A stretch of 64,000 nt of DNA. It comes from Candidatus Anderseniibacteriota bacterium. Its GTDB lineage: Bacteria; Patescibacteriota; Andersenbacteria; UBA10190. The stretch lies in NCBI GenBank assembly GCA_040876835.1, contig JBBDOX010000007.1, positions 7,916 to 71,915 of the forward strand, given 5' to 3'. The notes below the pieces were generated by a model. That model was not told the origin of the DNA. It worked only from the letters and a program-made list of their open reading frames with translations, and did not search any database. Shown here piece after piece: positions 11,383 to 64,000 of the stretch (positions are counted from its first letter, which is position 1; each line of letters starts with the position of its first letter). The position numbers and the translations under genes are program-made.

Positions 11383-11387
11383 CGTAA

Positions 11388-16794: not shown

Positions 16795-16797
16795 CCT

Positions 16798-17259: not shown

Positions 17260-17268
17260 AAGCAAGGC

Positions 17269-17721: not shown

Positions 17722-17745
17722 GCCATGCTATACTAGTCAGACGCT

Positions 17746-18441: not shown

Positions 18442-18463
18442 TGTGGTGTGCTATTATTAGCTC

Positions 18464-20299: not shown

Positions 20300-20305
20300 G
20301 CTCTT

Positions 20306-20701: not shown

Positions 20702-21135
20702 GCTTCCGTAACATCACATTATTTTTCGCATTCCTTTCCCTGCTGGGCAGTACTTTCTTTGGAGCAGGTCAGTACGCGCTCGCTCAAGCACCTTGCCCTC
20801 CCGGTTCTTTGTACGGATGTCTGGAAGCGCCTCTGCCTGGCCAAAAAAGCACTAACATTGATGATTTGGTACGAGCAAATTCGCCCTTGCTGACGTATAT
20901 AGATATAGTCGTTAAATTTGTTATTGCCATCATCGTGGTGATCAGCGTTATCTCTGTTATCGCCGGCGGGTTTGTGTATATGACAGCCGGGGGAGATGCC
21001 AGCAAAGTCGCTCTCGCGAAAACTATAATACTGTCTGCTTTGGGAGGATTAGCCCTCGCTCTCTTGTCATGGGTTCTCCTTAATACAATCAGTCCTCAGT
21101 TTGCCTCACAGCTCCGTGATCCGACCGCTCCGTAG
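20698..21135 (+). CDS. VirB2/TrbC-like pilin candidate
   Basis: A signal peptide 'MSFRNITLFFAFLSLLGSTFFGAGQYALA' is followed by two hydrophobic segments ('IVVKFVIAIIVVISVISVIAGGFVYM', 'IILSALGGLALALLSWVLL'), the architecture of conjugative pilins. It is the last gene of the locus. Confidence 0.4.
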   Translation: MSFRNITLFFAFLSLLGSTFFGAGQYALAQAPCPPGSLYGCLEAPLPGQKSTNIDDLVRANSPLLTYIDIVVKFVIAIIVVISVISVIAGGFVYMTAGGDASKVALAKTIILSALGGLALALLSWVLLNTISPQFASQLRDPTAP

Positions 21136-29891: not shown

Positions 29892-29950
29892 TATGATATG
29901 ATCACTTGTGCGTTAGGTTTCTGTTTGTATTTAGTGCTCTCACGTACCCC

Positions 29951-37486: not shown

Positions 37487-38803
37487 CTATTTAATCGTCT
37501 TGTCACGCGGGGTTTTGGTAGGGTCTACAAGAAAGCCTTTGAGATCCCGACGACCCACAATCATGTCGTAGTTCATATGGGTGCGGTCTGCTAAAAATGC
37601 TTCAGTTTTTACCGGGCGATCGCGAATAACCATGTTAAGGTTAATGATTGGGCGGGTTTGTTCGCCCAAGGCTCCGCGGACGTCTTTGTGCTCCACGACA
37701 GGTTTGTCGAGCTTAAGTTTTTTAGCCAGGTTTTCATCAATAGTTGTTCGGTATGCGCCGGTATCGATCTTGGCCAGAATGGGATGCTGCGCTTGTTCAT
37801 TATCAAGAATAATGACTTCTTCTTCTATACCTAAAATAGTTCTGCCAGTCATGTCTTCTACTTCCTGTTCAAGCTCATTTCCAAAAAGATTCTTTGCTAA
37901 TCTAATTTTCTTCTCCAAACTGCTCATTTTCAAGTCTTCCACTCGGCGGAGACGGGATCGTAGTGGAGCTAGGTTGGCGTATTGAATATCCAGCCCCGGA
38001 CGAGCATTGATTTCTAGAACTAGTGGACCATCATCACGATCGATAGCAATATCTACCCCCACATAGTTCAGGTTAGAGGCGGCGGCGGTGCGTACGGCAA
38101 GGAGGAGAAGGTCGTTCCAGTGCGGAACGGTAATACCCGACAGGCTTAATCGCTTATGGGGCAGGGTATCTAGTAGGTGTCCATGCTGTACGGCTGTTGT
38201 TGTGATGCCTTGTGACAGATCAATGCCCACTCCAATGCCCCCAGCATGCAAGTTCGCTTTTCCGCCTGATTCCTCGGTGGGTAAACGCAACATAGCCATA
38301 ACCGGTACCTGATTGTACAGCAGAACGCGAACGTCGGGAACTCCCTTAACACTGTATTGTTTTAAGACAGCATCTACTTTAACGCGCTGTTCGAAAAAGG
38401 CGACATCTGGGATGTTCCCATTAGAAAAGTTTCCGTCGAGGATATCTATAATATGATTCCGGAGCTCGGGAATAAATACTTCTGTTTTGTCTGCTTTAAC
38501 CCAGTTTCCTTTTTTGTTTCGTCCAAAGATAACTATAATTCCACCGCCTCCAGAAGAGGAGTTTGGTTTTAGCACAAAGGAACCAGGAAGTTTGGTCCAA
38601 CGAAATTTCTTGAGTTCCTCACGAGTACGAATGACACCAAATAGCCGGGGAGTGGCCAGGCCGGCTTTTTGCAAAACTTTCTTGGTTTTTAATTTATTGT
38701 TAGCAAGGCGAATTGCCTCGGAAGAGTTTACCTTCGCAATATACTCGAGCATCCTTGCATTCATCCCAAGCACGTTTTTCCATTGCTTGCTTCGCAGAGC
38801 CAT
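37487..38803 (-). CDS. ATP-grasp (RimK-like peptide ligase) fused to a C-terminal retropepsin-like aspartic protease domain
   Basis: The N-terminal half has an ATP-grasp layout ('KLKTKKVLQKAGLATPRLFGV...'). The C-terminal approximately 120 aa carry 'ILAKIDTGAYRTTID', a DTGA aspartyl protease motif of the Zn_protease/PF05618 type. Confidence 0.65.
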   Translation of the reverse strand: MALRSKQWKNVLGMNARMLEYIAKVNSSEAIRLANNKLKTKKVLQKAGLATPRLFGVIRTREELKKFRWTKLPGSFVLKPNSSSGGGGIIVIFGRNKKGNWVKADKTEVFIPELRNHIIDILDGNFSNGNIPDVAFFEQRVKVDAVLKQYSVKGVPDVRVLLYNQVPVMAMLRLPTEESGGKANLHAGGIGVGIDLSQGITTTAVQHGHLLDTLPHKRLSLSGITVPHWNDLLLLAVRTAAASNLNYVGVDIAIDRDDGPLVLEINARPGLDIQYANLAPLRSRLRRVEDLKMSSLEKKIRLAKNLFGNELEQEVEDMTGRTILGIEEEVIILDNEQAQHPILAKIDTGAYRTTIDENLAKKLKLDKPVVEHKDVRGALGEQTRPIINLNMVIRDRPVKTEAFLADRTHMNYDMIVGRRDLKGFLVDPTKTPRDKTIK

Positions 38804-38818
38804 AAAAGAGAGTCGAAT

Positions 38819-40348
38819 TTACTGAACGTATCGCAGTAAGCGACGGAACCGAAAGTATTCTGTTAGGCGCAACCCACTCCATCGACCCAGAGCGATATTA
38901 ACAGGAATAGCCAGCAGGACAATCTCGGGGTAGGAGACAATAATCGAACGAACAATTTCCCAGCTTACAATGAAGTAAGAAGCAATAGACAGCCCCAGTG
39001 TCCAGGCGGTAATGGTGGCAGCACGTCGCGCACCGGATTTAAACTGCACGGCAATGAATTCTTCGGCCAAGAGCACAAGAATGAGAATAGGGAAAATGGA
39101 GAATGACAAGATGGCCGTGTTGTCGAGTGCTACTCCTAGGCCAAAGAGCATAAGAATCGCTACGCTGGCCATGGTGAGCACCAGAGCCATGCGAGGAAGG
39201 TATAAAAGATGAAGTTTGCGGAGCACTAGACGTGTTAAAGTTCCGGCTAGCAAGATAACAGAGAACATTACTAATCCATACTTAAGGCCTAGTACTAAAA
39301 AGCTAAGCGTCGTCATCGCGGGAGTGATAATACCAAAGGCCTTAATACCGATTACCTGTCGGGCAAAAGAAAGAATTGTTGCGATTACAGGCAAAATCAA
39401 GATGAGCGTGATGTTATTAACAGGCACTCCACGGTTAATAAGAAAGTTGATGCCAAATGATAGGAAGTTGGTAATGCCAATGTCAGTGATCGCGCGAGCA
39501 CTAAATGTGCCGAATAAACGGTGGGACAGCGGAGAGTCAAAGATGGCTCGCTCGGCTTCTTCGGAGCTGATGGGTTCTAGTAGTAGATCGATTGCTTGAG
39601 GGCGGGTGAGTAGTACGTAACTAGGATTCAGTTGGGTGAATGTGGATTGAGCAGAAGGGGCTAAAACACCAAAAGGGGTTTCAGATAGGATGACAACGCC
39701 TTTGCTCTCCATGTTGAGATCAGCAAAAGATAGCTCGCCCGCTTGGCGTATGTGCTGGGCAAATTTCGATAAAATAGTGGGCCCGACACTACCGGATGTC
39801 CATGTAGCAATAATTTCTGCTTTAGCTACAACATCACGGGCATCAACTAACTGGTTGGCAAGCTCTTCTTCCACCACAACCTCGGGGCCTCCCTTAGAGC
39901 GCAGTACTAATAATAGGAGATCGTTTCTAGCTGCCTGTTGACGCTTAAGCTCAACTTGATCCTCTGGAGCACTACCATCGGTCAGTAAAATCATAGTGTG
40001 TTCAAACACAGTAATTTCAGCAGTGTCTTCAGCTATACTTTGTTCAGTCCGAATTGTTACCTGGATAGTATAGTTACCAGGGTTTGCATAGGCATGAGTA
40101 ACTTTCTCTCCAGTACTGCGAATTCCATCCCCAAAACTCCAGACCACTTCACGAATAGCGTCTCCTTCGGGGATAAATGATCCGGTAATGTCAAAAGAGA
40201 CTGTTCGGCCAATAAGTACTTGATTGGTAGTAATTGTAGCGTTGGCGGTGGGACGGGGGCTCTCTTCGGGGGGCTCCTCCTGAGCTAGAGTAAGCCAAGG
40301 GGCGACTAATAAGACTAGAAGAAAAAGAAGTGATTTTATGGATATCAT
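38819..40348 (-). CDS. Secreted PKD-domain protein fused to a C-terminal polytopic membrane domain (7TM inactive-transglutaminase-like partner of the ATP-grasp/protease gene)
   Basis: A signal peptide is followed by the PKD motif 'VVWSFGDGIRSTGEKVTHAYANPGNYTIQVTI' and then about 7 hydrophobic helices. It is adjacent to and co-oriented with the ATP-grasp gene. The ATG at 40348 is preferred over the GTG at 40372. Confidence 0.5.
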   Translation of the reverse strand: MISIKSLLFLLVLLVAPWLTLAQEEPPEESPRPTANATITTNQVLIGRTVSFDITGSFIPEGDAIREVVWSFGDGIRSTGEKVTHAYANPGNYTIQVTIRTEQSIAEDTAEITVFEHTMILLTDGSAPEDQVELKRQQAARNDLLLLVLRSKGGPEVVVEEELANQLVDARDVVAKAEIIATWTSGSVGPTILSKFAQHIRQAGELSFADLNMESKGVVILSETPFGVLAPSAQSTFTQLNPSYVLLTRPQAIDLLLEPISSEEAERAIFDSPLSHRLFGTFSARAITDIGITNFLSFGINFLINRGVPVNNITLILILPVIATILSFARQVIGIKAFGIITPAMTTLSFLVLGLKYGLVMFSVILLAGTLTRLVLRKLHLLYLPRMALVLTMASVAILMLFGLGVALDNTAILSFSIFPILILVLLAEEFIAVQFKSGARRAATITAWTLGLSIASYFIVSWEIVRSIIVSYPEIVLLAIPVNIALGRWSGLRLTEYFRFRRLLRYVQ

Positions 40349-40359
40349 AGAGGGTGAGG

Positions 40360-40815
40360 TTAGACTACACACAAGGCGGCCGCAAGTGCATCTGCAGCAT
40401 CGTCTGGTTGGGGGATATCTGCAAGGTGAAGCTGTTGAGTGACAGCGGCCTGAATCTGCTCTTTACGAGCGGCCCCGTACCCCGTGATTCTCGATTTAAT
40501 TTGCAGTGGAGTCAGAGATTCTACAGTTATGTGATGCTTACGTAGAATATACACCAACACCCCTCGTGCTTGTGCTGTGATCATAGCGGTTTTGCTGTTA
40601 TTCCCAAAGTATACTCGTTCTACTACGGCTATATCAGGGTGAGTATCGTTAATAAGGTGTTCTAAGTCTTCTCCTAACATAAGTAGTCGGTCTTCGTCGC
40701 TTTGGTGTTTAGGGGTAGTAAGACAGCCACAGCGGACAAACAAATGCTGGCTGCTGGTGTTGATAACACCAAAGCCAGTGCGCGCAATACCTGGGTCTAA
40801 TCCTAAAACGATCAT
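40360..40815 (-). CDS. ruvC: Holliday junction resolvase RuvC
   Basis: 'MIVLGLDPGIARTGFGVI' and 'AVVERVYFGNNSKTAMITAQARGV...DAADALAAAL' are present. Confidence 0.9.
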   Translation of the reverse strand: MIVLGLDPGIARTGFGVINTSSQHLFVRCGCLTTPKHQSDEDRLLMLGEDLEHLINDTHPDIAVVERVYFGNNSKTAMITAQARGVLVYILRKHHITVESLTPLQIKSRITGYGAARKEQIQAAVTQQLHLADIPQPDDAADALAAALCVV

Positions 40816-43463: not shown

Positions 43464-43988
43464 ATGAAAGGAAAATACCTGACAGCAGCCAACGGTGTGA
43501 CGATTTTCCGTTTAGTGCTGTTTCTGCTTTTCTTGATCTATCTTTACCTTCAACAGCCTATTGTGGCTGGTGCTCTTCTCCTCGCTGCCTGGGGACTGGA
43601 TGCCATTGATGGGTTTGTAGCTCGAATATTTCATCAACAGAGCGATATAGGATCATGGCTTGATAAAACTATTGATCGGGCGGTTATTGGATTGGGTGTG
43701 CTAGCCTTAATTGCTGGTGGATACATACCACCCAAGGCACTTCTTCTATTAACAAAAGATATTGGCTTATTTCCTTTATTTACGATTCAGCCGCCAGGTG
43801 CTTGGTGGGTCCAGGGGTTGGGGTGGACTGGCAAAGGAATGACCTTTCTACAAGGAATAGGAATACTATGGCTGCTTCTGGATCTGCGGTATGCAAACTA
43901 TTTATTGGGAATCGTGGCAGTAGCAGGGGGTGCAGTTGCTGTTTGGCACTTAAATTGCGTGGTTCGCAAGTATGAACAAAGGAACTAA
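43464..43988 (+). CDS. CDP-alcohol phosphatidyltransferase family protein
   Basis: The motif 'DAIDGFVARIFHQQSDIGSWLDKTIDR' fits D-x2-DG-x2-AR...G-x3-D-x3-D. A polytopic protein. Confidence 0.6.
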   Translation: MKGKYLTAANGVTIFRLVLFLLFLIYLYLQQPIVAGALLLAAWGLDAIDGFVARIFHQQSDIGSWLDKTIDRAVIGLGVLALIAGGYIPPKALLLLTKDIGLFPLFTIQPPGAWWVQGLGWTGKGMTFLQGIGILWLLLDLRYANYLLGIVAVAGGAVAVWHLNCVVRKYEQRN

Positions 43989-46431
43989 ACACCTTATCGC
44001 CCTCTGTGGAAAACATGTGGATGGATTGTGGAAATCTGGAGATAACGGTTATGGACTAAGTATTTTAGGGTTTCTGGGAGCACTCCTGGTGGTCTTGTTC
44101 ACACCTAGTGTGTTGACGGCCGAAGGTGAGGGTGGGGTGATTATATCTGAAATAATGTGGGCCGGAGGGGAATATGTTGAGATATATAATAATAGTCAGG
44201 TCGCGGTGAGCCTGAAGGGTTGGAAAATTACTCGCCAGAAAAACGAGAGTGAGGAGGAAAAAACGGTTGCTCAGCTTACTTCTGACCGTATAGTGCAGCC
44301 TGGTGCCTTCTTTCTGTTGCAGGAAGTAGGGGCAACAACAGTTTCTCCAGACGAGGAACGTTCTTCTATAACACTTGTGGATACGGGAGAAGTGCTGCGT
44401 TTATATACCAAAGATGGAGTACTAGTTGATATAGCGGGGCGGTTTGAAAGTGAAGGAAGTTGGTTTGCGGGAGTGAATACTAGTGGCGGAGTATCGATGG
44501 AAAGAGTCTTATATGACGCCGATGGTGAAATAGCTGAAAGTTGGATTGATTCCCTGGGAGTTGGTGGAGGAAGGCAAGGCACGCCTGCTGAAGCCTCAAT
44601 TCAAATTACTCCCTCTCCTCCCTCCATATCCCCGTCTTCTGCGCCCTCGAGTGCGCCGGTAGCATCGCCTAGCGTTATTCCTACCCCTTATTTATCTACA
44701 GTCATTGTGAACGAGTTTCTTCCAGACCCGACGGGGGATGATACTTTGGGTGAGTTTATTGAGCTGAAAAACACTGGAACGGCTGCTGCTAACCTTGATG
44801 GCTGGCAACTGGACGATGAAGAGGGCGGCAGCCTGCCATACGGCATCCCTACAGGAACATTGATTCCAGCTGGGGAGACTATGCTGTTCATGCGCCCAGA
44901 TACAAAAATTTCCTTGAACAATGATGGTGATCAAGTGAGGTTTTTGTCTCCAGATGGAGTACTTCAGTCGAGCGTTGCTTACGATGACGCAACGTCAGGG
45001 TATGCGTATGCATACGACACCCAAACAAAAACCTACCGACAAACCACAACCCCTACTCCAGGATCGGAAAACGTCTTTACTATTCCCCCCGTACCCACTC
45101 CAAAAATTAGTAGCACTGAGAACGCTACTGGCACAGAAGAAGAGGAGGAAGTCGGTCAGTTGTCTGATGCAATTGTGATTAGCGAGGTGTTGCCCAACCC
45201 TATTGGGTCTGACACGGAAGGAGAGTTTATAGAACTCTATAACTCTGGTTCAAGTGAAATAAATCTTGTCGGATGGAGACTTGATGATGTACTGGATGGT
45301 GGAAGTATCCCATATCGTATTCCGGTTGGTACAAGGATTGGAGGCGGTAAGTTTTTAGTGTTTGAGCGAGCACAGACAAAACTAGCGCTTAACAATAGCA
45401 ATGAAACTGTCCATCTTCTTGACCCTGCTGGGACAGTAAAATCTCTAGTCTCGTTTACGGATTCGATCGCCGAAGGTGTGTCGCTAGCTCGCGCGATGGA
45501 TGGTTCTTATGTGCTGACAACTACCGTTACAAAAGGAGCTGATAACCTCATCACTGCACCAGGGAGTCTACTATTTGGAGCTGTGGGAGGGGTAAGCAGA
45601 AGGGTGCTTAGTATAGAGCAATCTAGGCAGATGCCCCAAGGTTCAATAGTGAATTTGGAAGGAGTTGTGAGTGCTGCGCCAGGAATCTTAGGAAAGGGAA
45701 TTGTCTATCTGTCCGGGTCGGGAATACAGCTGTATCTAGGAAAAGGGGAGTGGCCCCTTGTAGAGCTAGGAGAGCGGATTCGTGTTACTGGCAAGCTCTC
45801 GTCAATTGCAGGCGAAGCGCGTATTCTTGTTTCTGCTGTAAGCGACGTAGAGCGAATAAGTACTGATGAACCACCTGAACCTCATATTGTAAAAACCAGT
45901 GACATACGCGAGGAACTCGAAGGGTTTTTAGTTGAAGTTCAAGGATTGATAACGCGTTCTAGCGGATCAACTTTTTATATTGACGATGGTAGTGGCGAGG
46001 CACGGATTACTGTTAAAGATTCAACAGGAATAAAAAAGCCTCGTACTTCCAAAGGGATGGCAGTGCGGATAACCGGAATAGTTTCACAAACCGCTGGTGG
46101 GTACCGGATCCTCCCTCGTTTCCAGGGCGACTTGGTTATAGGAGGCGGAGTTGTATCTTCTACAAAAGTAACAACCCGATCTTCTTCTGCGTCTGCTCCT
46201 GCGGATTTATCAGCCGAATCTACTGCTGATCCTATCAATGTATTTGAAGCGGGGGATGTTTCGTATGCAGTGGAATGGGCACAAGGGGGCGGAGCAGCGA
46301 CAAAGTCAAAGCAGAACATATTTGTTGTTTTTGGAGTTGGCGCCGCTTTATTTCAGGCTGCAGGTGCTGCCGCCGCAGGAGAGCCATTGCTAAGGAGCCG
46401 CAGGCTTGCTACAAAAGAACAATGGCAGTAG
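43972..46431 (+). CDS. Lamin-tail-domain (LTD) repeat surface protein
   Basis: An N-terminal TM is followed by three LTD-like modules ('VIISEIMWAGGEYVEIYN...LKGWKI', 'VIVNEFLPDPTGDDTLGEFIELKNTGTAAANLDGWQLDD', 'IVISEVLPNPIGSDTEGEFIELYNSGSSEINLVGWRLDD'). The C-terminus has a hydrophobic tail. Confidence 0.6.
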   Translation: MNKGTKHLIALCGKHVDGLWKSGDNGYGLSILGFLGALLVVLFTPSVLTAEGEGGVIISEIMWAGGEYVEIYNNSQVAVSLKGWKITRQKNESEEEKTVAQLTSDRIVQPGAFFLLQEVGATTVSPDEERSSITLVDTGEVLRLYTKDGVLVDIAGRFESEGSWFAGVNTSGGVSMERVLYDADGEIAESWIDSLGVGGGRQGTPAEASIQITPSPPSISPSSAPSSAPVASPSVIPTPYLSTVIVNEFLPDPTGDDTLGEFIELKNTGTAAANLDGWQLDDEEGGSLPYGIPTGTLIPAGETMLFMRPDTKISLNNDGDQVRFLSPDGVLQSSVAYDDATSGYAYAYDTQTKTYRQTTTPTPGSENVFTIPPVPTPKISSTENATGTEEEEEVGQLSDAIVISEVLPNPIGSDTEGEFIELYNSGSSEINLVGWRLDDVLDGGSIPYRIPVGTRIGGGKFLVFERAQTKLALNNSNETVHLLDPAGTVKSLVSFTDSIAEGVSLARAMDGSYVLTTTVTKGADNLITAPGSLLFGAVGGVSRRVLSIEQSRQMPQGSIVNLEGVVSAAPGILGKGIVYLSGSGIQLYLGKGEWPLVELGERIRVTGKLSSIAGEARILVSAVSDVERISTDEPPEPHIVKTSDIREELEGFLVEVQGLITRSSGSTFYIDDGSGEARITVKDSTGIKKPRTSKGMAVRITGIVSQTAGGYRILPRFQGDLVIGGGVVSSTKVTTRSSSASAPADLSAESTADPINVFEAGDVSYAVEWAQGGGAATKSKQNIFVVFGVGAALFQAAGAAAAGEPLLRSRRLATKEQWQ

Positions 46432-47497: not shown

Positions 47498-49177
47498 ATG
47501 GTTGTGAATTCCAATACAGGTGAAGATATAGGCGAAGAGTTGTCGGCACGTCTACACCGACTAGAATATGAACAGCAGGAAAGGCTTGCTCAGCATCGAG
47601 CTGAGCAAGCTCAGTTGCCGTACCTTAGCCTGGTAATATTTCCTATCAATTCTGAGGTAGTGGAGATGATACCTAAATCACAGGCTGAGGCTGCTGGAGC
47701 AGTACTGTTTTATAAGCAAGGACAGGATATTCGTTTGGGGGTTGTGAATCCAGGAACGGCGGCCGTAGAAGAGATAGTGCAGTATTTAACCCAGCGCTTT
47801 GGTATTCCTCCTCAGCTATATGTTATATCTCATCGCAGTTTAATAAGTGTTTTGGCGCGGTACCGTCGTGAGCACGAGGAGGAAGTAGTGCCACAGGGCG
47901 AAGTTCGAATTGCTCAGGAGGAAGTTGCAGCCTTCGAAGAAGTGCTACAGAATTTGGAGGATCTCGGTCGCCGGATTACATCTTTGCCACCAACGGAAAT
48001 TCTTAACACGATCGTTGTTGGGGCTGTCAAAGTAGGAGCGTCTGATATCCATATTGAACCCCATGAGAAAGATGCACGCTTGAGGTTTCGTATTGATGGA
48101 GTGCTGCAGGACGTGACTTCATTCGATCGCGAGGGATGGTCGCTGCTCTTGTCGCGTGTAAAGGTCCTTGCCCAGCTTAAACTCAATGTGCGTGACGTGC
48201 CCCAGGATGGCAGTTTTGTACTGCGCGTGGCGGAAGAAGTGTATGACATGCGCTTGTCGGTGCTCCCCGGTGGATATGGTGAAAACATCGTGGTTCGAGT
48301 CTTGGATCGGAAAAGTCAGGCAGTTCGAATAACCGATTTAGGAATGAAAGATCGTGATTTTAATTTAGTTAAACAAGAGCTTAGAAAAGTAAACGGAATG
48401 ATACTAGTGACTGGTCCTACGGGGTCAGGGAAAACGACAACCCTAGCTTCATTTATATCCGAGGTTAACAAGCCCGAACTGAAGGTCATTACTTTAGAGG
48501 ATCCAATTGAGTATCGCTTGGCGGGAGTAGAGCAGACGCAGATTGACGTGGATGCCGGCTATACATTTGCCAAGGGCCTACGATCTATTTTGCGTCAAGA
48601 TCCTGACATTATCATGATTGGGGAGATGCGCGACACAGAGACGGCGGAAACAGCTGTTCACGCTGCCTTAACCGGACATTTGGTTTTCTCCACTTTGCAT
48701 ACCAACAACGCAGCAGGTGCTATCCCGCGTCTGGTTGATATTGGGATTAAGCCGTTTGTATTGGGGCCAGCTCTTAATATGGTTATTGCCCAACGCTTGG
48801 TGCGAGTAGTGTGCTTACAGTGTGCACAAGAGTATGTTCCCGGTAATGACGAACGAGAAAGCATCCGAAATGTTATGCGGGGAATACGGAAAGATATCTT
48901 CGACCCAGCAGTCCTTGATAACAAGACCCTGACTTTTAAAAAGGCCGTGGGCTGTGCAGCTTGCGGTAAGACAGGGTATAAAGGCCGAAAAGGTGTATTC
49001 GAAATTTTCTCTATTGAAGGCAGTATGGAGGAACTAGTACTCCAAGGCGCTGATGCTGGGCATATTCAGGAAGAGGCGCTTAAGCAGGGTATGACAACTA
49101 TTGCTCAGGATGGATACTTAAAAGTTATTGAGCATATCACTACTACTGAAGAAGTCGCACGTATTTCAGAAGAATAA
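47498..49177 (+). CDS. GspE/PilB-family secretion ATPase (type IV pilus assembly ATPase-like)
   Basis: Walker A 'VTGPTGSGKTTTLASFI', 'ITLEDPIEY', 'ILRQDPDIIMIGEMRD' and the tetracysteine motif 'CLQC...CAAC' are present. Confidence 0.85.
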   Translation: MVVNSNTGEDIGEELSARLHRLEYEQQERLAQHRAEQAQLPYLSLVIFPINSEVVEMIPKSQAEAAGAVLFYKQGQDIRLGVVNPGTAAVEEIVQYLTQRFGIPPQLYVISHRSLISVLARYRREHEEEVVPQGEVRIAQEEVAAFEEVLQNLEDLGRRITSLPPTEILNTIVVGAVKVGASDIHIEPHEKDARLRFRIDGVLQDVTSFDREGWSLLLSRVKVLAQLKLNVRDVPQDGSFVLRVAEEVYDMRLSVLPGGYGENIVVRVLDRKSQAVRITDLGMKDRDFNLVKQELRKVNGMILVTGPTGSGKTTTLASFISEVNKPELKVITLEDPIEYRLAGVEQTQIDVDAGYTFAKGLRSILRQDPDIIMIGEMRDTETAETAVHAALTGHLVFSTLHTNNAAGAIPRLVDIGIKPFVLGPALNMVIAQRLVRVVCLQCAQEYVPGNDERESIRNVMRGIRKDIFDPAVLDNKTLTFKKAVGCAACGKTGYKGRKGVFEIFSIEGSMEELVLQGADAGHIQEEALKQGMTTIAQDGYLKVIEHITTTEEVARISEE

Positions 49178-51140: not shown

Positions 51141-51839
51141 TTAGTTTAATCTTCGGTAACTTTTTGTTTCCTTCAATTCTTCTACAACGTGAGCTGCTGC
51201 ACCAACCATTCGAGAAATCACAAAAAGCGCCTTTCCGTAAGCGGGATCAAGCTTAACTTCTAGCATGCCAGCGGCCATAGCTCCATCCACGTTAAGGGGG
51301 AGTTTTTTGCCTTTCTTCTCTCTAAACTGCTCCTCAATTTTGTAGGCTTTTTCAAAGAAGAGACAAGAGAATCCAAGTGCTTGCGCTTTGCTGTATAAAG
51401 CGGTTGCTCGAGGATCTTCCTCTTTATAAACTTTATGCCCTAGTCCTGGAATAATTTGTTTCTGTTCCAATCGTTCAGCCACAATTTCCTCAGCCGACTT
51501 ATCATTGGCGATCATTCTAGCAGCGGCTTCAATAGCGCCGCCGTGTTTTTCACCAACGGTCAGAGCACTAGCTGCCAAGGCAACATTCATAGCATTACCT
51601 GTGCTGGTCACAACCCGTGGTACAAAAATCGATGGAGCTTCAATACCATGCTCTACTGTAGCAATCATCATTGCTTCAAGGAGCATTTTCTCGTTCTGTG
51701 TTGGTAAATCTTCTCGCCATAGCAAAAACAGCGTGTCAGTAAGTGAATGCTGCTTGATGAGATCAACTATTCGATGTCCACGAATACTATGCTGGCCATC
51801 CTCGTTACTGCTAATAGAAGTTTCAATATCGAGTGTCAT
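51141..51839 (-). CDS. Citrate-synthase-family small protein (citryl-CoA lyase-like)
   Basis: 'PGLGHKVYKEEDPRA', 'LNVDGAMAAG' and 'ALFVISRMVGAAAHVVEE' match the citrate synthase C-terminal catalytic region. It overlaps the SucD-like gene by 4 nt. Confidence 0.6.
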   Translation of the reverse strand: MTLDIETSISSNEDGQHSIRGHRIVDLIKQHSLTDTLFLLWREDLPTQNEKMLLEAMMIATVEHGIEAPSIFVPRVVTSTGNAMNVALAASALTVGEKHGGAIEAAARMIANDKSAEEIVAERLEQKQIIPGLGHKVYKEEDPRATALYSKAQALGFSCLFFEKAYKIEEQFREKKGKKLPLNVDGAMAAGMLEVKLDPAYGKALFVISRMVGAAAHVVEELKETKSYRRLN

Positions 51840-52735
51840 AAAACCTTTTTTAATAATACAGGAATATCTTCAGGGGTTGTGGCGATTTGAACGCCAGCTT
51901 TCTTGAGAGCATTAATCTTGGATTTGGCGGATCCTTTCCCTTTGCTTACGATGGCACCGGCGTGGCCAAGTACCGTGCCTTGAGGAAGGCTACGAGAAAA
52001 ATCCCCGGCGATTAAGGCAACTATGGGTTTGGTAATTTCTTTTTTTAGGATGGCGTCAGCTAGTTCTTCTTCGTAGGTTCCTCCAACCTCTCCAAATACA
52101 ACTATGGCTTTAGTTTGGCTATCCTTCTCGAACAGATGGGCACAGTCCACAAAAGTTGTTCCTAGTAATACGTCACCTCCGATTCCGATGGCAGTACTTT
52201 GACCGAGACCGGCGGCGGTAATGATACGAGAAAGTTCCGCAGTCATACCACCGCTTTTAGAGATAATCCCGATTGCTCCTTTCTTAAATACGCGATCCAC
52301 GAGCTCAGAGGCACCTATGGCTCCAATTTTAGCTTTGGCTGGGGATATAATCCCAACCGAACTTGGACCTACTACCCGTACATTTCGTTCTTTGCCCAAA
52401 GCAATAACTTTAGCCACGTCAGCTACGGGGATTTTTTCGGTGAGTATATTTACCAAAGGAATGTCGTTCCAGATTGCTTCCATGGCAGCATCCGCTGCAA
52501 ATTGAGCGGGGACAGCAACTAGGCTGGTGTTAACAGTTGGATGGTAGTGAAGCGCCTCTTTAATAGAATTATAAACCGGAATTCCATGTTTGGTCTTTTG
52601 CCCTCCCTTGCCTGGAGTTACACCCGCAACAACGGCAGTTTTGTAGTGCAGCATCTCAGATGCGGCACGGGATCCTTCATGGCCGGTAATGCCTTGAATC
52701 AAAGAAATGGTATTTTGGTCGACAAGAATACTCAT
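51836..52735 (-). CDS. Succinyl-CoA synthetase alpha-subunit-like CoA-binding protein (SucD / citryl-CoA synthetase small subunit-like)
   Basis: 'IQGITGHEGSRAA', 'GVTPGKGG', 'GIISKSGGMTAE', 'GQSTAIGIGGD' and the phospho-His loop 'LGHAGAIV' are present. Confidence 0.85.
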   Translation of the reverse strand: MSILVDQNTISLIQGITGHEGSRAASEMLHYKTAVVAGVTPGKGGQKTKHGIPVYNSIKEALHYHPTVNTSLVAVPAQFAADAAMEAIWNDIPLVNILTEKIPVADVAKVIALGKERNVRVVGPSSVGIISPAKAKIGAIGASELVDRVFKKGAIGIISKSGGMTAELSRIITAAGLGQSTAIGIGGDVLLGTTFVDCAHLFEKDSQTKAIVVFGEVGGTYEEELADAILKKEITKPIVALIAGDFSRSLPQGTVLGHAGAIVSKGKGSAKSKINALKKAGVQIATTPEDIPVLLKKVL

Positions 52736-52737
52736 AG

Positions 52738-53805
52738 TTATTTCTTATGATAGGCAAGTTTAACAATAGTGGCAGCAGATTCACTCATGGGTGTATCAGG
52801 GCCAAATAGATGAAAATCAAAACCCTCTTTTTTGGCTACTTCTTCTAACATGGCAAAGGCTTCTTTCTGACGTGGTCCGTCACGACGAATAACGATAGGG
52901 TATAGAGGCTTTGGTTTGACTGAGCGAAGACCCTCTACAAACCCCAACAATGTCTCATAAATATCAGTGAAATTTGCCGTACCCCCCACTACCCAGCAAC
53001 CCTTCAGGTTAGGCTGGCTTAATACTTGTTTTGTTAGAGCACGAACTACACCAGACTTTGGGTTGCCAGAGTATTCAACATAATTAGCTGGTTTGCCACC
53101 TACTTTCATCAGCGCATCAAGATTAATCATAGAGGCTCCGCCTCCGGAAGCTAGAACGGCAATATCACCCCCGAGCTCTACGTATGGACGTGCTTCAGGG
53201 GTAACTACGTGATCATCAAGGACGATCTTGGCGTCTCCGGCAACGAAACTACCATCTTGAAGTTCAAAAAGAGGGTTTATTTCTACCAGCAGAGCTTTTT
53301 CAGAAATAAAGAGCCTCCACATGTTTTGTAGAATGGTGATTAGCGTTGGGTTTGGAGCAAGGTCGGCTGCTATTAAAGCCTGGCGAGCAAGAAAATCAGG
53401 TAGACCAACAAATATGTTCAGAGTGGTTAGCTGTGCCTTTGCTGTGCCACTTCCTCCTTTTGCATTTATTGCCAGGACGGGACTGCGAGTACTGGTATCA
53501 TAACTTAGACTCATATATCGTTCTGCTTTGGCTGTAACTGCCTGCTCCACCAAGAGGACTTGGGGAGTATGCCCATCGATAGGGGTATTCCAGATTTTCT
53601 GGGCCGCTGAAGCAAAATCAGCTTTCTTTTGCACTAATTTGATACCTCCTTTACGTCCTCGATCACCCACTGGAACTTGAGATTTAATAATGGCCGGAAC
53701 GGCAATAGGACAGCTTTTGGTTCGAGGTGTAATAAGTTTCCTCTTAGGAATAGGGATACTGTATTTAACGAATAATGCTTTTCCTTCGTGTTCTAGTAGG
53801 TTCAT
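52738..53805 (-). CDS. Succinyl-CoA synthetase beta-subunit-like ATP-grasp protein (SucC / citryl-CoA synthetase large subunit-like)
   Basis: 'MNLLEHEGKALFVKYSIPIP' is present, with an ATP-grasp N-terminus and a CoA-ligase C-terminal half. The 355 aa length is slightly short for SucC. Confidence 0.75.
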   Translation of the reverse strand: MNLLEHEGKALFVKYSIPIPKRKLITPRTKSCPIAVPAIIKSQVPVGDRGRKGGIKLVQKKADFASAAQKIWNTPIDGHTPQVLLVEQAVTAKAERYMSLSYDTSTRSPVLAINAKGGSGTAKAQLTTLNIFVGLPDFLARQALIAADLAPNPTLITILQNMWRLFISEKALLVEINPLFELQDGSFVAGDAKIVLDDHVVTPEARPYVELGGDIAVLASGGGASMINLDALMKVGGKPANYVEYSGNPKSGVVRALTKQVLSQPNLKGCWVVGGTANFTDIYETLLGFVEGLRSVKPKPLYPIVIRRDGPRQKEAFAMLEEVAKKEGFDFHLFGPDTPMSESAATIVKLAYHKK

Positions 53806-59988: not shown

Positions 59989-61065
59989 TCATTCGAACTG
60001 ATTTATGCACTCGTTGAAGGTACGAACTTGCTGATTATATTTTTCTGCAGCAGCCTGGGTGCCAGAATCGCTCATGCCGTACTGTTTTATAAGCTCATTG
60101 TATTGCTGCTTGAGAGAATTGAGTTGATCGTTGGCAGTCTGAGCCTCAGTTTGTTTTTCCTCTGCCTCTTGTAGTAGTACATTTCCCTCTGCATGTAGTC
60201 GTTCGCCTTCGTCCCAATAGGGTTGAGCTTGTTCGCGCGAACCAGTCTCCTGATAGATATTATTGCCTTTTTCGATGTTTTCATTCCCTTTTTTAATTTT
60301 TGAGTTTCCCTCCTTTGCTAAGAACTTTGTTTCTTCAATTAAATCTTCAACGATGATGGTTTGTTCGGTGATTTGAGTATCAAGATCAGATAGTTCCTGC
60401 TCGATTTGTCGGATTAAAAACTCTTTGTTCTCGAAGTTCTGCAAGAAGCTACTGTCTGGGCTGGGACATGCGGACAGGGGGGTTCCAAATGTTTGAACTG
60501 CCAACCAAGTAGTCCGTCCTTCAAATTCTCCTTTTTCAACCGCAATTCCAAGTTCACGAAAGTTGTTCGATAGGATATTGGCGCGATGGCCTGGACTATC
60601 CATCCAGGCTTGTACCAACGCTTCGTCTGAACTGAAGTTCCCTAGGGCCAGGTTTTCACCAACAGTGATGTATTCGTATTTCGCGGCTTCTACAACATCA
60701 GAAGGTCCTCGTCCGTCAGGAGAAATATGCTCAAAGTATTGTTGGTTAAACATATCTTCAAGTTTCAGCTGAGCTGCCTTATTAAGCGCGTTGTTACGCA
60801 GTAAAGGTGGAAGGCCGTTGCCTTGTCGTTGGCTGTTAGTGGCACTGAATACCCCATCTGTTGTAAGAATGCCAGCTGCTTCACTGCCTGAATGGCGAAG
60901 AGGCTCTGGGGTACTAAGAATTTTTTGCAAGGACTTAAGTTGCTCTGTGGGCAATGCTGAGGAAGGTATAACGAGTGGTGAAGCGTCAGACATATATAAA
61001 AGAATCCCAGCTGCTCCGAGGCAGAGGACAATAAGCGCGATGGGTAGTGTGTAACGACCGGTCAT
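59989..61065 (-). CDS. CAP/SCP (PR-1-like) domain secreted protein with a C-terminal coiled-coil region
   Basis: 'LVQAWMDSPGHRANIL' and 'GIAVEKGEFEGRTTWLAVQTFG' match the CAP domain. The last 150 aa or so are E/Q/K-rich heptads. It has an N-terminal TM/signal. Confidence 0.6.
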   Translation of the reverse strand: MTGRYTLPIALIVLCLGAAGILLYMSDASPLVIPSSALPTEQLKSLQKILSTPEPLRHSGSEAAGILTTDGVFSATNSQRQGNGLPPLLRNNALNKAAQLKLEDMFNQQYFEHISPDGRGPSDVVEAAKYEYITVGENLALGNFSSDEALVQAWMDSPGHRANILSNNFRELGIAVEKGEFEGRTTWLAVQTFGTPLSACPSPDSSFLQNFENKEFLIRQIEQELSDLDTQITEQTIIVEDLIEETKFLAKEGNSKIKKGNENIEKGNNIYQETGSREQAQPYWDEGERLHAEGNVLLQEAEEKQTEAQTANDQLNSLKQQYNELIKQYGMSDSGTQAAAEKYNQQVRTFNECINQFE

Positions 61066-61186
61066 AACATCTTGTGTAATAGTACCTTATATAGTTTCGT
61101 GATGAGCATGCTCGTCTGCACAAAATAAATAAAGAAAACTGTTTGGGCGTTGGGAGAAGACGCAGTTTCGACGTACAATATAAGGC

Positions 61187-61663
61187 ATGGCTCAATCCTT
61201 TGAACGCACGCCCCAGGAGCGCGAAACACTGATTTTCTCCCAGCCGGAACAGGCGCAGGAGTTCTCTGAGAGGGTGGCTGAGCGTATAACTACACCCACT
61301 GGCCAGCGATCTAAAAAAGAATCTTTAGCTCAAGAGTTGGCTGAGGAGTTTGATCGTCAGGGAGAAGGGGTGGGTAAGGTACTGCATCCGTGGGAACATA
61401 CTGCCGAAGAGCACCAGGAGGTCCAACAGCTTGTTAATGTCGCTTTTGAGAAAGATCTGCCAGCAGCCTTGAAGCTGGCTCGATCAAGCAATCATTACCC
61501 TCGAAACATCGATCTGTTGCATGATGTGTTAACGACCGAGATGTACGAGTTAGTCAGAGAGTCTCATCTTAACCACCAACCAACAGGCGTAGTGTGGCTT
61601 GTAACGGCAGTCTTGATTTTACTGGCAGGCGTTGGCGTTATTCTTTTTATCTTCATAAGTTGA
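61187..61663 (+). CDS. Hypothetical C-terminally anchored membrane protein preceding the coupling-protein gene
   Basis: A 158 aa acidic N-terminal region is followed by the C-terminal TM 'VVWLVTAVLILLAGVGVILFIFI'. Its stop lies 1 nt before the next ATG. Confidence 0.4.
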   Translation: MAQSFERTPQERETLIFSQPEQAQEFSERVAERITTPTGQRSKKESLAQELAEEFDRQGEGVGKVLHPWEHTAEEHQEVQQLVNVAFEKDLPAALKLARSSNHYPRNIDLLHDVLTTEMYELVRESHLNHQPTGVVWLVTAVLILLAGVGVILFIFIS

Positions 61664-61664
61664 T

Positions 61665-64000
61665 ATGTCTTTCTTAGGTTTGATTGTAGTTGTCGTTATA
61701 GTTGCCGGCGTCGCTGTGGCATTGTGGATGCTATGGAAGTTGATACTCGAGCAGGCGCGGCTGAGACGTACTCTTGATATACAAATGCTCCAAGTGCTTT
61801 TGCCGAAGGACTTGGACCCGCAAGAGCGAGAAGAGGGTTTAGGAGATCAAACCAAAGAACGAATTTCCGTGGCTGAGCAATTATTATCAACGCTCTCGCA
61901 CTTACCAACGCGCTTATGGGATCAGTTGCTCTATGGCCAGCCGATTATCGTGTTGGAAATTATTGCCCGCTCTGATGATAAAATTGTTTTTTATGCTGGG
62001 ACAGAGCGTCGTTACCTTGACCACCTGGAGAAGCAAATCTACGCTCACTATCCTGAATCGGAAGTAACACTTGCCTCTGATTTCACCATCTTTGAGCCCG
62101 GGGATACTATTTTAACAGGAGTGCTTCGTTTGGGTCGCAAGCAGCATTTACCGCTCGCTACCTACAAGGAACTAGAAGCTGATCCGATGCAGGCACTAAC
62201 GGGAGCATTGGCTAAAATTCGAGACGGAGATGCGGCAGTAATTCAACTTGTATTGCAGCCCGCGTCCAAACGGGCTAGTAAAAAAGCAGCTCTGGCTACT
62301 CGGCGGACTGTCCGGGGTCGACAATCAGATGTCGGAGGTAGAGGAGCTATTGGTTTGTTAACTGATCTTAAGACTGCTACTAAGAGTGCTCAGGAAAAAC
62401 AGGAGGCACGTCAGGAAAGCACGCAGCTAACTCAGCGTATGCAACAGCGGGTGGAGCTTGTTGAGCAGAAAATGGTACAGCAGCAGTTTAATGTCAATAT
62501 TCGTCTGGGAGTCTCTACTCGAGGTGCGGATGAAGCAGAGAGGGTATTTAATGCGATTGTGGGGGCATTTTCCCAATACGATTTACCGGATCTTAATATG
62601 CTGCGGCTTAAGCGCCCTACCCGTCCGTCCGGATTTCTGAGAGATCTTATCTTCCGTGTGCCACGCTCTGGAACAGCAAATGTCTTAAGTACAACAGAAA
62701 TTGCTTCCCTTTTTCACTTCCCGTTACCGACTACTGGTACGCCAAATATTTTGTGGCGTGGTGCGAAGATAGCGCCAGCTCCGCCTGACTTGCCAACTGC
62801 GGGTGTGCTGCTTGGGTATAACAAATATCGAGGAGTTGATCAGCCTGTATACCTAGCTGATGAAGATCGTCGCCGTCATCTGTATATGATTGGTCAAACA
62901 GGAACCGGCAAAACCACACTATTTCTGAATATGATTGTGCAAGACATTCAGGCTGGTCGGGGAGTGGGTGTGGTAGATCCTCATGGGGATCTGATCGAAG
63001 ACATCCTGCTTCATATTCCCCCCGAGCGTTTGAAAGACGTAGTGCTGTTTGATCCTCGTGATAAAGATAGGCCACTCGGATTTAACATTTTGGAGACTAA
63101 AGACGAGGGGCAAAAAGATCTAGTCGTTAATGAGGTGGTACAGATTCTGCAAAAACTGGCCGCCCGTCTCAATCCTGAATCGGTGGGACCTATGTTTGAA
63201 CACTACTTACGTAATGCGTTGTTAGCCTTGGTAGAAGACCCTAACGCAACCTTGATCGATATACCGCGGATGTTTGTAGATGAAGAGTTTCGGCAGTCAA
63301 TTATTAAGAAGAACACTAACCCGACTGTTCTGCAGTTTTGGGAAAAAGAATTTGCGCAATCACAACGGGGGCAAATGTCGGCTGATATGCTTAGCTACGT
63401 GATCAGTAAGTTAGGGCGGTTCATAAGCAATGAAACAGTGCGTAATCTGATTGGACAGGCTAAATCGTCCTTTGATGTCCGGACTGTAATGGATGAGCAG
63501 AAAATTTTGCTTTGTAACCTTTCGAAGGGAATATTAGGAGACATCAATTCAGACTTATTGGGATTTGTGTTGGTATCAAAAATTCAGATTGCTGCTTTAG
63601 GGCGGGCGAATATGCCGGAAGACCAGCGCAAGGATTTTTATCTGTATCTTGATGAGTTTCAGAACTTTACAACTGACAGCATCTCAACTATTTTATCCGA
63701 GGCGAGAAAATATAAGCTTAACTTGAACCTGGCCCATCAGTTTATTCAGCAACTTGAAGAAGGAATTAGAGATGCAGTGTTTGGCAACGTAGGAACGCTG
63801 GTCAGTTATCGTATTGGAGTTGATGATACGGAGTTTATGGCCAAGCAGTTTCAACCTGTCTTCAAAGAATATGACCTGCTTAATCTGAACCGGTTTACAG
63901 CAATTCTTCGCTTATTAGTCCACGGCACACCGCAGCGACCGTTCAGCTTAGCTGTTCCGGCACCCCCTATGAGCGGCGATACGCAAACACGGGAAGCGGT
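61665..64000 (+). CDS. VirD4/TraD/TraG-like type IV coupling protein ATPase (3' partial, runs off window)
   Basis: Hand-translated ORF absent from the track because it has no in-window stop. The N-terminal TM is 'MSFLGLIVVVVIVAGVAVALWMLW'. Walker A is 'MIGQTGTGKTTLFLNMI', followed by 'VVDPHGDLIEDIL' (TrwB_AAD_bind-like D-P-x-G-D). The Walker B region is 'FYLYLDEFQNF'. Confidence 0.65.
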   Translation, partial: MSFLGLIVVVVIVAGVAVALWMLWKLILEQARLRRTLDIQMLQVLLPKDLDPQEREEGLGDQTKERISVAEQLLSTLSHLPTRLWDQLLYGQPIIVLEIIARSDDKIVFYAGTERRYLDHLEKQIYAHYPESEVTLASDFTIFEPGDTILTGVLRLGRKQHLPLATYKELEADPMQALTGALAKIRDGDAAVIQLVLQPASKRASKKAALATRRTVRGRQSDVGGRGAIGLLTDLKTATKSAQEKQEARQESTQLTQRMQQRVELVEQKMVQQQFNVNIRLGVSTRGADEAERVFNAIVGAFSQYDLPDLNMLRLKRPTRPSGFLRDLIFRVPRSGTANVLSTTEIASLFHFPLPTTGTPNILWRGAKIAPAPPDLPTAGVLLGYNKYRGVDQPVYLADEDRRRHLYMIGQTGTGKTTLFLNMIVQDIQAGRGVGVVDPHGDLIEDILLHIPPERLKDVVLFDPRDKDRPLGFNILETKDEGQKDLVVNEVVQILQKLAARLNPESVGPMFEHYLRNALLALVEDPNATLIDIPRMFVDEEFRQSIIKKNTNPTVLQFWEKEFAQSQRGQMSADMLSYVISKLGRFISNETVRNLIGQAKSSFDVRTVMDEQKILLCNLSKGILGDINSDLLGFVLVSKIQIAALGRANMPEDQRKDFYLYLDEFQNFTTDSISTILSEARKYKLNLNLAHQFIQQLEEGIRDAVFGNVGTLVSYRIGVDDTEFMAKQFQPVFKEYDLLNLNRFTAILRLLVHGTPQRPFSLAVPAPPMSGDTQTREA

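Follow-up and report, generated by a model that had tools for sequence, protein, structure and literature searches.

A membrane-anchored coupling-protein-like ATPase with a VirB4-type N-terminal domain fold, encoded far from virB4 on an Andersenbacteria chromosome

The window, a stretch of 64,000 nucleotides from an Andersenbacteria genome, ends inside a long open reading frame whose product was likened in the initial annotation to the coupling proteins (T4CPs) of type IV secretion systems (T4SSs), and which lies about 40 kb from a VirB4 locus. The locus raises two questions. First, is the frame a real gene, and to which ATPase family does its product belong? Second, what might a coupling-type ATPase do when it is encoded so far from the rest of a secretion apparatus? 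The features of the frame are as follows.

61665–64000, + strand: T4CP-family ATPase gene, codons 1–778 of 819; the window end cuts the gene, and the stop is expected near 64124
61671–61736, + strand: single N-terminal transmembrane (TM) helix, residues ~3–24, followed by a basic stretch, RLRR
61773–62714, + strand: DUF8128 region, residues about 37–350, an alpha/beta domain with the VirB4 N-terminal-domain fold
62892–62918, + strand: Walker A, GQTGTGKTT, residues 410–418
62970–62990, + strand: T4CP-type VVDPHGD strand, residues 436–442
63105–63494, + strand: all-alpha domain inside the nucleotide-binding domain, residues about 481–610
63645–63668, + strand: Walker B, YLDEFQNF, residues 661–668, with the LNLAHQFIQQL strand next

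Translation of the window gives 778 stop-free codons from the ATG at 61665 through 64000, and the full-length protein of 819 aa (P0001) is 100% identical across all 778 window-encoded residues, which bears out the initial description of a frame of at least 778 codons running past the window end. The complete gene is held by Logan contig L001. It had been described as missed by the ORF track; the frame is indeed absent from the ORF list, but solely because such lists leave out frames running off the window end. P0001 already bears the NCBI name type IV conjugative DNA transfer family protein, Candidatus Andersenbacteria.

Three T4CP profiles score above their Pfam gathering thresholds (GA) on the ATPase, namely T4SS-DNA_transf (29.5 bits, GA 20.1), TrwB_AAD_bind (28.8 bits, GA 20.5) and TraG-D_C (22.3 bits, GA 22); the matches cover residues 401–722 and, at 22–30 bits, their margins are weak. 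DUF87 (20.4 bits, GA 23.2) and FtsK_SpoIIIE (14.7 bits, GA 24) remain below theirs. The HMMER comparison proposed with the initial VirD4/TrwB/TraD-like assignment thus upheld it, the best profiles being those of T4CP families and not of FtsK/SpoIIIE or HerA/DUF87. Among NCBIfam models, TraD and the VirD4-like family CD1115 score best, with the NCBIfam T4CP equivalogs far under their cut-offs. Precomputed Pfam matches on P0001 are DUF8128 (PF26449), TrwB_AAD_bind and T4SS-DNA_transf, and DUF8128 is also matched on all 120 listed relatives. A family profile run against PDB sequences matches TrwB and DotL only, and no VirB4. Neither the Pfam gathering score nor the closest fold places the ATPase with FtsK/SpoIIIE; no gathering-level score, N-terminal HAS-barrel or NurA-type partner places it with HerA/DUF87.

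The motifs point the same way. Walker A and VVDPHGD are both present, although separated by 17 residues and so not strictly "immediately" consecutive as first described; this stretch aligns with GATGTGKS...IVDPNGD of TrwB and shows no variation across 49 orthologues, and Walker A is kept in 80 genome loci. YLDEFQNF follows Walker A at about 250 aa, close to the 240 or so first estimated, and the pattern FYLY[ILVM]DEFQNF, found in nearly all relatives, aligns with the Walker B region of TrwB. The ATPase therefore possesses the RecA-like domain with Walker A, DPxGD/E strand and Walker B by which T4CPs are recognised. In an AF2 model (pLDDT 85.7), the helices inserted at residues 481–610 likewise answer to the all-alpha domain of T4CPs, but this insert cannot tell a T4CP from a VirB4, because VirB4 C-terminal domains have a similar one. 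Structural alignment pairs 357 of the 420 TrwB residues with the ATPase. Sequence identity to TrwB is only about 16%.

The predicted N-terminal TM helix corresponds to a hydrophobic helix at residues 3–24, and a TM segment is found at the N-terminus of every full-length relative within the 80 genome loci. Given the RLRR stretch behind it, the positive-inside rule predicts an N-out, C-in topology. Compared with canonical TrwB (R388), VirD4 and TraD/TraG (PF10412, PF02534, PF12696), the ATPase has a single TM helix where they have two, lacks the two-TM membrane domain directly before the motor, carries an additional 350-aa cytoplasmic domain between membrane anchor and motor, and is encoded without adjacent relaxase or T4SS genes. 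Taken together, these comparisons confirm the open frame as a real gene for a membrane-anchored T4CP-like ATPase.

Directly upstream lies a second gene, preceded by a possible promoter.

61150–61179, + strand: weak sigma-70-like promoter match (TTGGGA-18-TACAAT, 9/12 matches), just 5′ of the two-gene unit
61187–61663, + strand: ORF of a 158-aa partner protein, with a C-terminal TM tail at residues about 131–158 (nt about 61577–61660)

The promoter match is suggestive at most, because chance alone would account for the number of sites of this kind. As initially noted, the 158-aa product appears tail-anchored, its sole hydrophobic segment, from residue 131, being at the extreme C-terminus. Its stop codon (TGA, 61661–61663) stands 1 nt ahead of the ATPase ATG, and no promoter-like or terminator-like site was found between the two genes. 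The N-terminal part of the protein is charged and varies widely among homologues, whereas the helical core behind it is conserved and contains the motif P(Y/F)xLDxFHDxL; Pfam, NCBIfam and PADLOC searches gave no match. Homologues are encoded immediately 5′ of the ATPase gene and on the same strand in 53 of 83 loci, with small gaps in most. The TM tail is restricted to Andersenbacteria and one further locus (L067), and the partners of most lineages are without a TM segment.

The secretion genes of the same window, a candidate functional partner for the ATPase, are these.

12333–21135, + strand: MPF-FATA-like T4SS cluster, including the five entries below
14626–16794, + strand: 8-TM VirB6-like protein
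17269–17721, + strand: PrgI/VirB3
17746–18441, + strand: TraC/TrsD-like protein
18464–20299, + strand: VirB4 (P-loop_TraG)
20306–21135, + strand: pilin-like proteins (T4SS_pilin at 20698–21135)

The VirB4 locus described at this distance is therefore real, with genes for PrgI, a TraC/TrsD-like protein, VirB4 and T4SS_pilin, and the replication-origin region said to separate it from the ATPase does so: the intervening DNA includes dnaA (29906–31363), dnaN and recF. Extension downstream of the ATPase gene, as the initial annotation had proposed, uncovered no relaxase or vir gene within 10 kb; the genes there are DUF3048, holA, rpsT and truB, housekeeping in character, and the order partner-ATPase-DUF3048-holA-rpsT-truB is common to three Andersenbacteria loci (L001, L003 and L004). 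DUF3048 and holA are conserved neighbours within Andersenbacteria only. The GC content of the ATPase gene (0.471) is native to the window (0.480 ± 0.018). Neither the window ORFs scanned nor the flanks of related loci yielded a homologue of a relaxase or of Replic_Relax. The gene is thus chromosomal and vertically inherited and is not part of an integrative conjugative element (ICE), in line with the earlier suggestion of a dispersed secretion system domesticated on the chromosome and no intact ICE; flanks of housekeeping genes in conserved order, native GC and the lack of a relaxase match all speak against an ICE. By eye, other recurrent neighbours of the relatives also look like housekeeping genes, for example dnaX-, EF-P- and aminoacyl-tRNA-synthetase-like ones.

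How far is this arrangement peculiar to one genome? Relatives of the ATPase occur in no fewer than 591 species genomes, it is matched by 7,850 cluster representatives at E ≤ 1e-30, and five loci (L032, L043, L047, L070 and L071) hold tandem paralogues of the family. According to Quinonero-Coronel et al. 2025 (Microb Genom 11:001409, PMC12102498), 2,918 of 3,035 Patescibacteria genomes (96%) encode VirD4-like T4CPs; these are without a relaxase, only 148 of 5,713 homologues are near virB4, and the T4SS is near dnaA. In the accessible text of that report, its homologues share with our ATPase a chromosomal location far from virB4, the lack of a relaxase, an MPF-FATA-like T4SS near dnaA/dnaN/ksgA in the same genome, and near-universal presence in the phylum, with about two copies to a genome. 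As the pattern has been in print since 2025, the finding is for the most part an ordinary one: the exact protein is already annotated as T4CP-family, the locus is one more example of the pattern, and the importance of what follows beyond it is modest. The same text treats its homologues as HMM matches only, and within it the DUF8128 domain with its VirB4-like N-terminal fold, the partner and the Replic_Relax-linked plasmid relatives are undescribed. In the literature that we searched, neither the 158-aa partner family nor plasmid relatives in T4SS clusters beside Replic_Relax were found, a search for DUF8128 returned nothing, and one for coupling proteins linked to Replic_Relax yielded nothing of use.

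Full-length relatives are also found on 490 plasmids. Those compared were from Bacillus (for instance pBM69 and, in B. subtilis, plasmids with sizes near 25 and 64 kb), Embleya (Streptomycetaceae) and haloarchaea; they carry names such as "DUF87 domain-containing" or "type IV secretory system conjugative DNA transfer family" protein and share 22–30% identity with the ATPase over residues about 70–800, its N-terminal domain included (E 2e-44 for the B. subtilis protein over this range). Unlike the chromosomal ATPase, the plasmid versions lie inside T4SS operons. On the four bacterial plasmids examined (L085, L086, pBM69 and the Embleya plasmid), a Replic_Relax gene directly follows the relative and a separate canonical VirB4 is encoded in the same cluster, with PrgI/TcpE-type genes in most; on a haloarchaeal plasmid, the relative sits in a pilin/T4SS cluster. 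There are also differences in build, as the relative in L085 is without an obvious N-terminal TM helix and without a small upstream partner, and in Natrinema pNATPE02 the N-terminal domain is encoded as a separate ORF.

As to the second question, we consider it probable that an ATPase of the T4CP branch and its partner together feed substrate to the chromosomal T4SS. The ATPase would belong to the VirD4/TrwB branch of the FtsK/HerA superfamily, would be membrane-anchored and presumably hexameric, and would comprise one TM helix, the cytoplasmic DUF8128 domain with its VirB4-type fold and a RecA-like motor with an all-alpha insert, being co-transcribed with a small conserved partner that in Andersenbacteria is tail-anchored. 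The family would descend from coupling ATPases that served conjugation in monoderms and archaea. It sits beside a Replic_Relax protein within T4SS operons on bacterial plasmids, and in Patescibacteria it would have become a vertically inherited chromosomal gene, with the relaxase-like neighbour gone and virB4 unlinked. With the partner as a putative adaptor, the ATPase would recruit substrate, either protein or relaxase-independent DNA, at the cytoplasmic face of the membrane, might dock on the apparatus via its VirB4-like domain, and would use ATP to feed substrate to the VirB4/VirB6/PrgI/pilin machinery encoded near oriC. We infer that the protein forms hexamers, hydrolyses ATP, binds its partner and docks on the T4SS, and we assume that it works together with the VirB4 locus.

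That assumption is what the foremost alternative denies. The ATPase and its partner might be an exapted translocase independent of the T4SS, engaged for instance in handling DNA or nucleoprotein at the membrane, with no functional tie to the VirB4 locus. T4SS genes lie within 8 kb of none of the 80 genome-scan loci, and VirB4, PrgI, pilin and the other T4SS genes of the window have no match near relatives elsewhere save one pilin-like match (L027), which accords with the scarcity of T4CP homologues near virB4 reported in PMC12102498. The relaxase-like neighbour of the plasmid type is gone, and HerA and DptH-type ATPases match the structure of the ATPase strongly. PMC12102498 also reports, from a Tn-seq comparison, that the t4cp homologue of Southlakia epibionticum, which may not be of the DUF8128 type, is dispensable while the T4SS genes are essential, and its authors themselves raise exaptation. 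Yet according to the same source T4CP genes are often unlinked from virB4, those of conjugative elements included; no NurA, nuclease or division gene is a conserved partner, the small protein being the sole conserved neighbour; and T4CP homologues in nearly all genomes of a phylum in which T4SSs are described as broadly ubiquitous fit a shared role. On balance, exaptation seems to us rather unlikely, though worth keeping in view beside a role in T4SS substrate delivery.

Could the protein instead be a second, divergent VirB4-type ATPase, a motor of assembly or pilus biogenesis and not a substrate receptor? It does show the N-terminal-domain fold and the C-terminal ATPase fold by which a VirB4 is recognised, its size of about 820 aa and two-domain layout equal those of VirB4, and a small membrane protein is encoded just 5′, as VirB3 is for VirB4. 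Nevertheless, no VirB4 sequence family matches it (none of CagE_TrbE_VirB, AAA_10 and P-loop_TraG in Pfam at E ≤ 1, and TIGR00929 at 16.3 bits against a cut-off of 643), hhalign with the VirB4 of the window recovers the P-loop only, at probability 3, and the likeness of its N-terminal domain to that of VirB4 is structural only, no sequence-level link having been found. In contrast to VirB4 proteins such as TrwK of R388 and the Thermoanaerobacter protein known from its C-terminal domain (4ag5), it bears the T4CP-type motif DPHGD, and the PDB sequences reached by its family profile are T4CPs. It coexists with a canonical VirB4 in its own genome, as its relatives do on the bacterial plasmids examined, where they hold the T4CP position beside Replic_Relax; and the partner has no PrgI/VirB3 match and in most lineages no TM segment. 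A VirB4-type motor is thus quite improbable. It is very improbable indeed that the gene is what remains of an integrated element, conjugative or mobilisable, or was carried in as its cargo, or that the ATPase serves in anti-phage defence of the MADS or Dnd/Dpt type: plasmid relatives are abundant and a weak PADLOC match to mad8 (44 bits) is the sole basis of the defence reading, but the housekeeping synteny is kept across Andersenbacteria, the scanned ORFs include no integrase, relaxase or repeat-flanked structure, the sole tRNAs of the window (at 2128 and 2613) are 59 kb from the gene, GC is native, the family is near-universal in the phylum, and there are no defence partner genes, the small partner being without a PADLOC match.

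Returning to a T4CP-branch ATPase that serves the chromosomal T4SS, its mixed architecture invites a further reading, which we offer tentatively as possible but doubtful, that the family is intermediate in evolution between VirB4 and VirD4, with a motor of the coupling type and an N-terminal domain kept from VirB4. If true, this would support an origin of T4CPs from a VirB4-like ancestor, and would suggest that coupling proteins dock in the inner-membrane complex of the T4SS through contacts of the VirB4-like N-terminal domain, which gives a testable placement of the coupling protein on the machine, at least in the systems of monoderms, archaea and Patescibacteria. The Patescibacterial module would then have been domesticated with a lineage-specific small adaptor after loss of its Replic_Relax partner.

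Cultivated Saccharibacteria cannot live as epibionts without their T4SS, and the VirB4-type N-terminal domain, the dedicated partner and the Replic_Relax-linked plasmid relatives provide concrete experimental handles. The plasmid relatives also indicate a coupling-protein architecture among plasmids of Bacillus and Actinomycetota that typing tools at present rate as "non-mobilizable". Within the window, the ATPase gene has no paralogue, since a phmmer search at E ≤ 10 matched only the gene itself. As a separate observation, the window encodes at 43972–46431 an LTD protein, likewise of 819 aa.

As the initial annotation had described, an open frame runs from ATG 61665 past the window end for at least 778 codons; 778 sense codons were translated (region 61000–64000 read), and the frame was missing from the ORF list because that list leaves out frames that run off the window end. 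Each of the features ascribed to the protein was found in the translation, namely a hydrophobic N-terminal helix (residues 3–24, the single anchor) and the motifs GQTGTGKTT (residues 410–418), VVDPHGD (436–442) and YLDEFQNF (661–668). Since basic residues come after the transmembrane (TM) helix, an N-out, C-in topology is predicted. In a database search the full-length entry, P0001 (819 aa, 100% identity across the entire query), was found on a 114-kb NCBI contig under the name 'type IV secretory system conjugative DNA transfer family protein [Candidatus Andersenbacteria]', together with more than 100 orthologues of nearly equal length at 64–86% identity. PF26449 (DUF8128) is precomputed on all of these orthologues, and PF10412 and PF02534 also on most.

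By sequence, the ATPase is placed in the type IV coupling protein (T4CP) family. Three T4CP models of Pfam, T4SS-DNA_transf (29.5 bits, GA 20.1), TrwB_AAD_bind (28.8 bits, GA 20.5) and TraG-D_C (22.3 bits, GA 22), score above their cut-offs, and their alignments together cover residues about 401–722. DUF87 (20.4 bits, GA 23.2) and FtsK_SpoIIIE (14.7 bits, GA 24) stay below theirs, with matches confined to the P-loop region. Therefore, the coupling-protein-like reading of the initial annotation stands, and neither FtsK/SpoIIIE nor HerA/DUF87 is the best match. Among NCBIfam models, TraD-type ones and that of the VirD4-like CD1115 family score highest, and a profile of 49 orthologues matches TrwB (E 1.4e-4) and DotL (E 9.4e-4) among PDB sequences. 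In structure comparisons the ATPase scores 29.4 with the VirB4 C-terminal domain (4ag5), 27.9 with the DptH C-domain, 26.4 with TrwB (357/420 residues aligned), 24.2 with HerA, 23.7 with DotL, 21.9 with Cagbeta, 17.1 with TcpA and 16.3 with FtsK, and thus VirB4 and T4CP are not separable by the fold alone. The N-terminal domain, in the model, has a VirB4-like fold, a likeness undetectable in sequence comparisons. Hence the ATPase joins the overall architecture of VirB4 to a motor that is T4CP-like in its sequence.

The 158-aa partner (ORF 61187–61663) is located directly upstream, with its TGA stop ending 1 nt ahead of the ATPase ATG, and its one hydrophobic segment at the extreme C-terminus accords with the tail-anchored protein noted there before. 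In a neighbourhood census of the 80 best loci and further loci of relatives, a small same-strand gene directly upstream is the sole broadly conserved neighbour of the ATPase relatives; it is homologous to the partner in 53 of 83 loci, with the common core P(Y/F)xLDxFHDxL. The ATPase and this conserved small protein form an operon-like pair. Among the loci surveyed, the TM tail of the partner occurs only in Andersenbacteria and one further relative, L067. Divergently transcribed from the pair is a CAP/YkwD-domain gene (59989–61065, minus strand), kept at that position in close relatives only (L003, L005), whose product is anchored at its N-terminus and has a long C-terminal region, rich in Q and E, that is probably a coiled coil.

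Relatives of the ATPase were present in at least 591 genomes in a scan with one genome per species, and an exhaustive representative search gave 7,850 clusters at E ≤ 1e-30. The best 80 of the former share about 40–70% identity over residues about 1–801 and, by record titles, belong to many Patescibacteria lineages and a few MAGs labelled otherwise. In the census loci, all full-length relatives have the N-terminal TM segment and nearly all have Walker A and B. Several of these loci contain a tandem paralogue of 900–990 aa (L032 3904–6873; L043 5154–7850; L047 10945–13890; L070 11074–13905; L071 3679–6528), apparently built like the ATPase and ending in a long C-terminal tail of low complexity. 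Four of these five paralogues have their own small gene (166–191 aa) just upstream, which the partner profile does not match.

Full-length relatives are also carried by 490 plasmids (tblastn), including those of Bacillus (168), Streptomyces (108), Staphylococcus (27), Clostridium (21), Natrinema (12) and Sulfolobus (12). With one of them, encoded on a plasmid of B. subtilis, the BLASTP alignment has E 2e-44 and spans residues 71–790. The relative is the first gene of a conjugation operon on pBM69 of B. methanolicus and on two plasmids of B. subtilis. A Replic_Relax (PF13814) gene comes directly after it, and further along are conjugal transfer genes and a distinct VirB4-like ATPase, whose AAA_10 domain was confirmed in L085; the B. 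subtilis operons include a TcpE-type protein. An Embleya plasmid has the order PrgI, XF1762, an ATP-binding protein (taken as VirB4), the relative, Replic_Relax and NlpC/P60. On Natrinema pellirubrum pNATPE02 (L087, 7758–11937), a separate 375-aa DUF8128-like ORF lies directly before a 1019-aa T4CP-family ATPase, in a cluster that includes another T4CP-family protein (1085 aa) and a pilin gene. The N-terminal domain is therefore a separable module, as seen on haloarchaeal plasmids. These plasmid contexts argue for a coupling ATPase as the ancestral role of the family; no Replic_Relax homologue was detectable in the window or the related loci. The Bacillus and Embleya plasmids L085, L086, L088 and L089, each with a T4SS cluster, a DUF8128-type ATPase and Replic_Relax, are typed 'non-mobilizable' by MOB-suite, and their conjugative potential is probably under-called.

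The ATPase shares its genome with a T4SS, and the rest of the window is Patescibacterial chromosome around oriC:

6923–7765: ksgA
about 12.3–21.1 kb: T4SS cluster (8-TM VirB6-like protein, PrgI, TrsD/TraC-like protein, VirB4, pilin-like proteins)
29906–31363: dnaA, near oriC
also in the window: dnaN, recF, YidC, PBP1a, ruvB, polA
61665 to past the window end: ATPase

The VirB4 locus is thus far from the ATPase, with replication-origin genes between them, as stated initially. The T4SS region (7720–21135) begins directly after ksgA with six unannotated proteins of 475, 316, 416, 251 (encoded on the minus strand), 292 and 465 aa, all of which have a single hydrophobic segment at the N-terminus. 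These are followed by the VirB6-like protein (722 aa), a protein of 153 aa, PrgI, the two parts of a split VirB4 (the TrsD/TraC-like protein of 231 aa and an ATPase of 611 aa) and two pilin-like proteins. The region ends ~9 kb ahead of dnaA, in agreement with the published Patescibacteria layout.

Quinonero-Coronel et al. 2025 (PMC12102498) reported 5,713 VirD4-like T4CP homologues, distributed over 2,918 of 3,035 genomes of Patescibacteria; just 148 of the homologues lie close to virB4, relaxases are nearly absent, and virB4 clusters are close to dnaA, dnaN and ksgA. Therefore, the dispersed, chromosomally domesticated system proposed in the initial annotation is correct but was published before, and the present ATPase is a further member of a group already catalogued. 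No description of the conserved partner or of the VirB4-like N-terminal domain was found in the literature searched, nor any paper naming DUF8128; these two features lift the interest of the ATPase somewhat above routine.

We propose that the ATPase would form a hexamer and, with the partner as a putative adaptor at the membrane, deliver a substrate to the oriC-proximal T4SS, possibly docking on it through the VirB4-like domain. The main alternative is an exapted translocase acting independently of the T4SS. In S. epibionticum the t4cp homologue is not essential whereas the T4SS genes are, for which reason exaptation 'cannot be ruled out' according to the authors (PMC12102498). Wang et al. 2023 (PMC10633639) recognised neither a coupling protein nor a relaxase in the T4SS locus of this species. 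A 2025 FEMS review (PMC12857230) stresses that the place of T4CPs on the machine is unknown. Within 8 kb of the relatives in the census loci, no homologue of VirB4, PrgI, the VirB6-like protein or other members of the window cluster was found, and one locus has a pilin-like match near the relative. It is less likely that the ATPase is a divergent VirB4, as its fold might suggest; VirB4_CagE reaches 16 bits only (NCBIfam), and the 49-orthologue profile matched no VirB4 among PDB sequences.

An element remnant is likewise a less likely explanation. A Logan contig with the full gene (L001) reaches 10 kb beyond the window end, where DUF3048, holA, rpsT, truB, two epimerases and more housekeeping genes follow the ATPase, with no relaxase or vir gene in these 10 kb. 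Two other Andersenbacteria, with ATPases at about 70% and 64% identity, share the order partner–ATPase–DUF3048–holA–rpsT–truB, and the GC content of 61187–64000 is 0.471 against 0.480 ± 0.018 for the window. The gene is native to the chromosome and inherited vertically, and the earlier view that it is chromosomal and not part of an intact ICE holds. A defence ATPase, to which a weak mad8 match points, is also less likely.

Several other loci of the window were also observed. Three adjoining genes at 51141–53805 (minus strand), with Citrate_synt, CoA_binding/Ligase_CoA and ATP-grasp_2/Citrate_bind domains, resemble a gene set for ATP-citrate lyase or citryl-CoA synthetase; in a Patescibacterium with a reduced genome, such a set seems unusual. 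A protein of 819 aa (43972–46431) contains three lamin-tail domains and weakly matches the OB fold; it and a nearby PilB-type T2SSE ATPase (47498–49177) may belong to a type IV pilus or a DNA-binding surface apparatus. At 37487–40372 (minus strand), an ATP-grasp (ATPgrasp_ST)–Zn_protease fusion adjoins a PKD and 7TM_transglut membrane protein, and the two resemble a peptide-modification gene pair.
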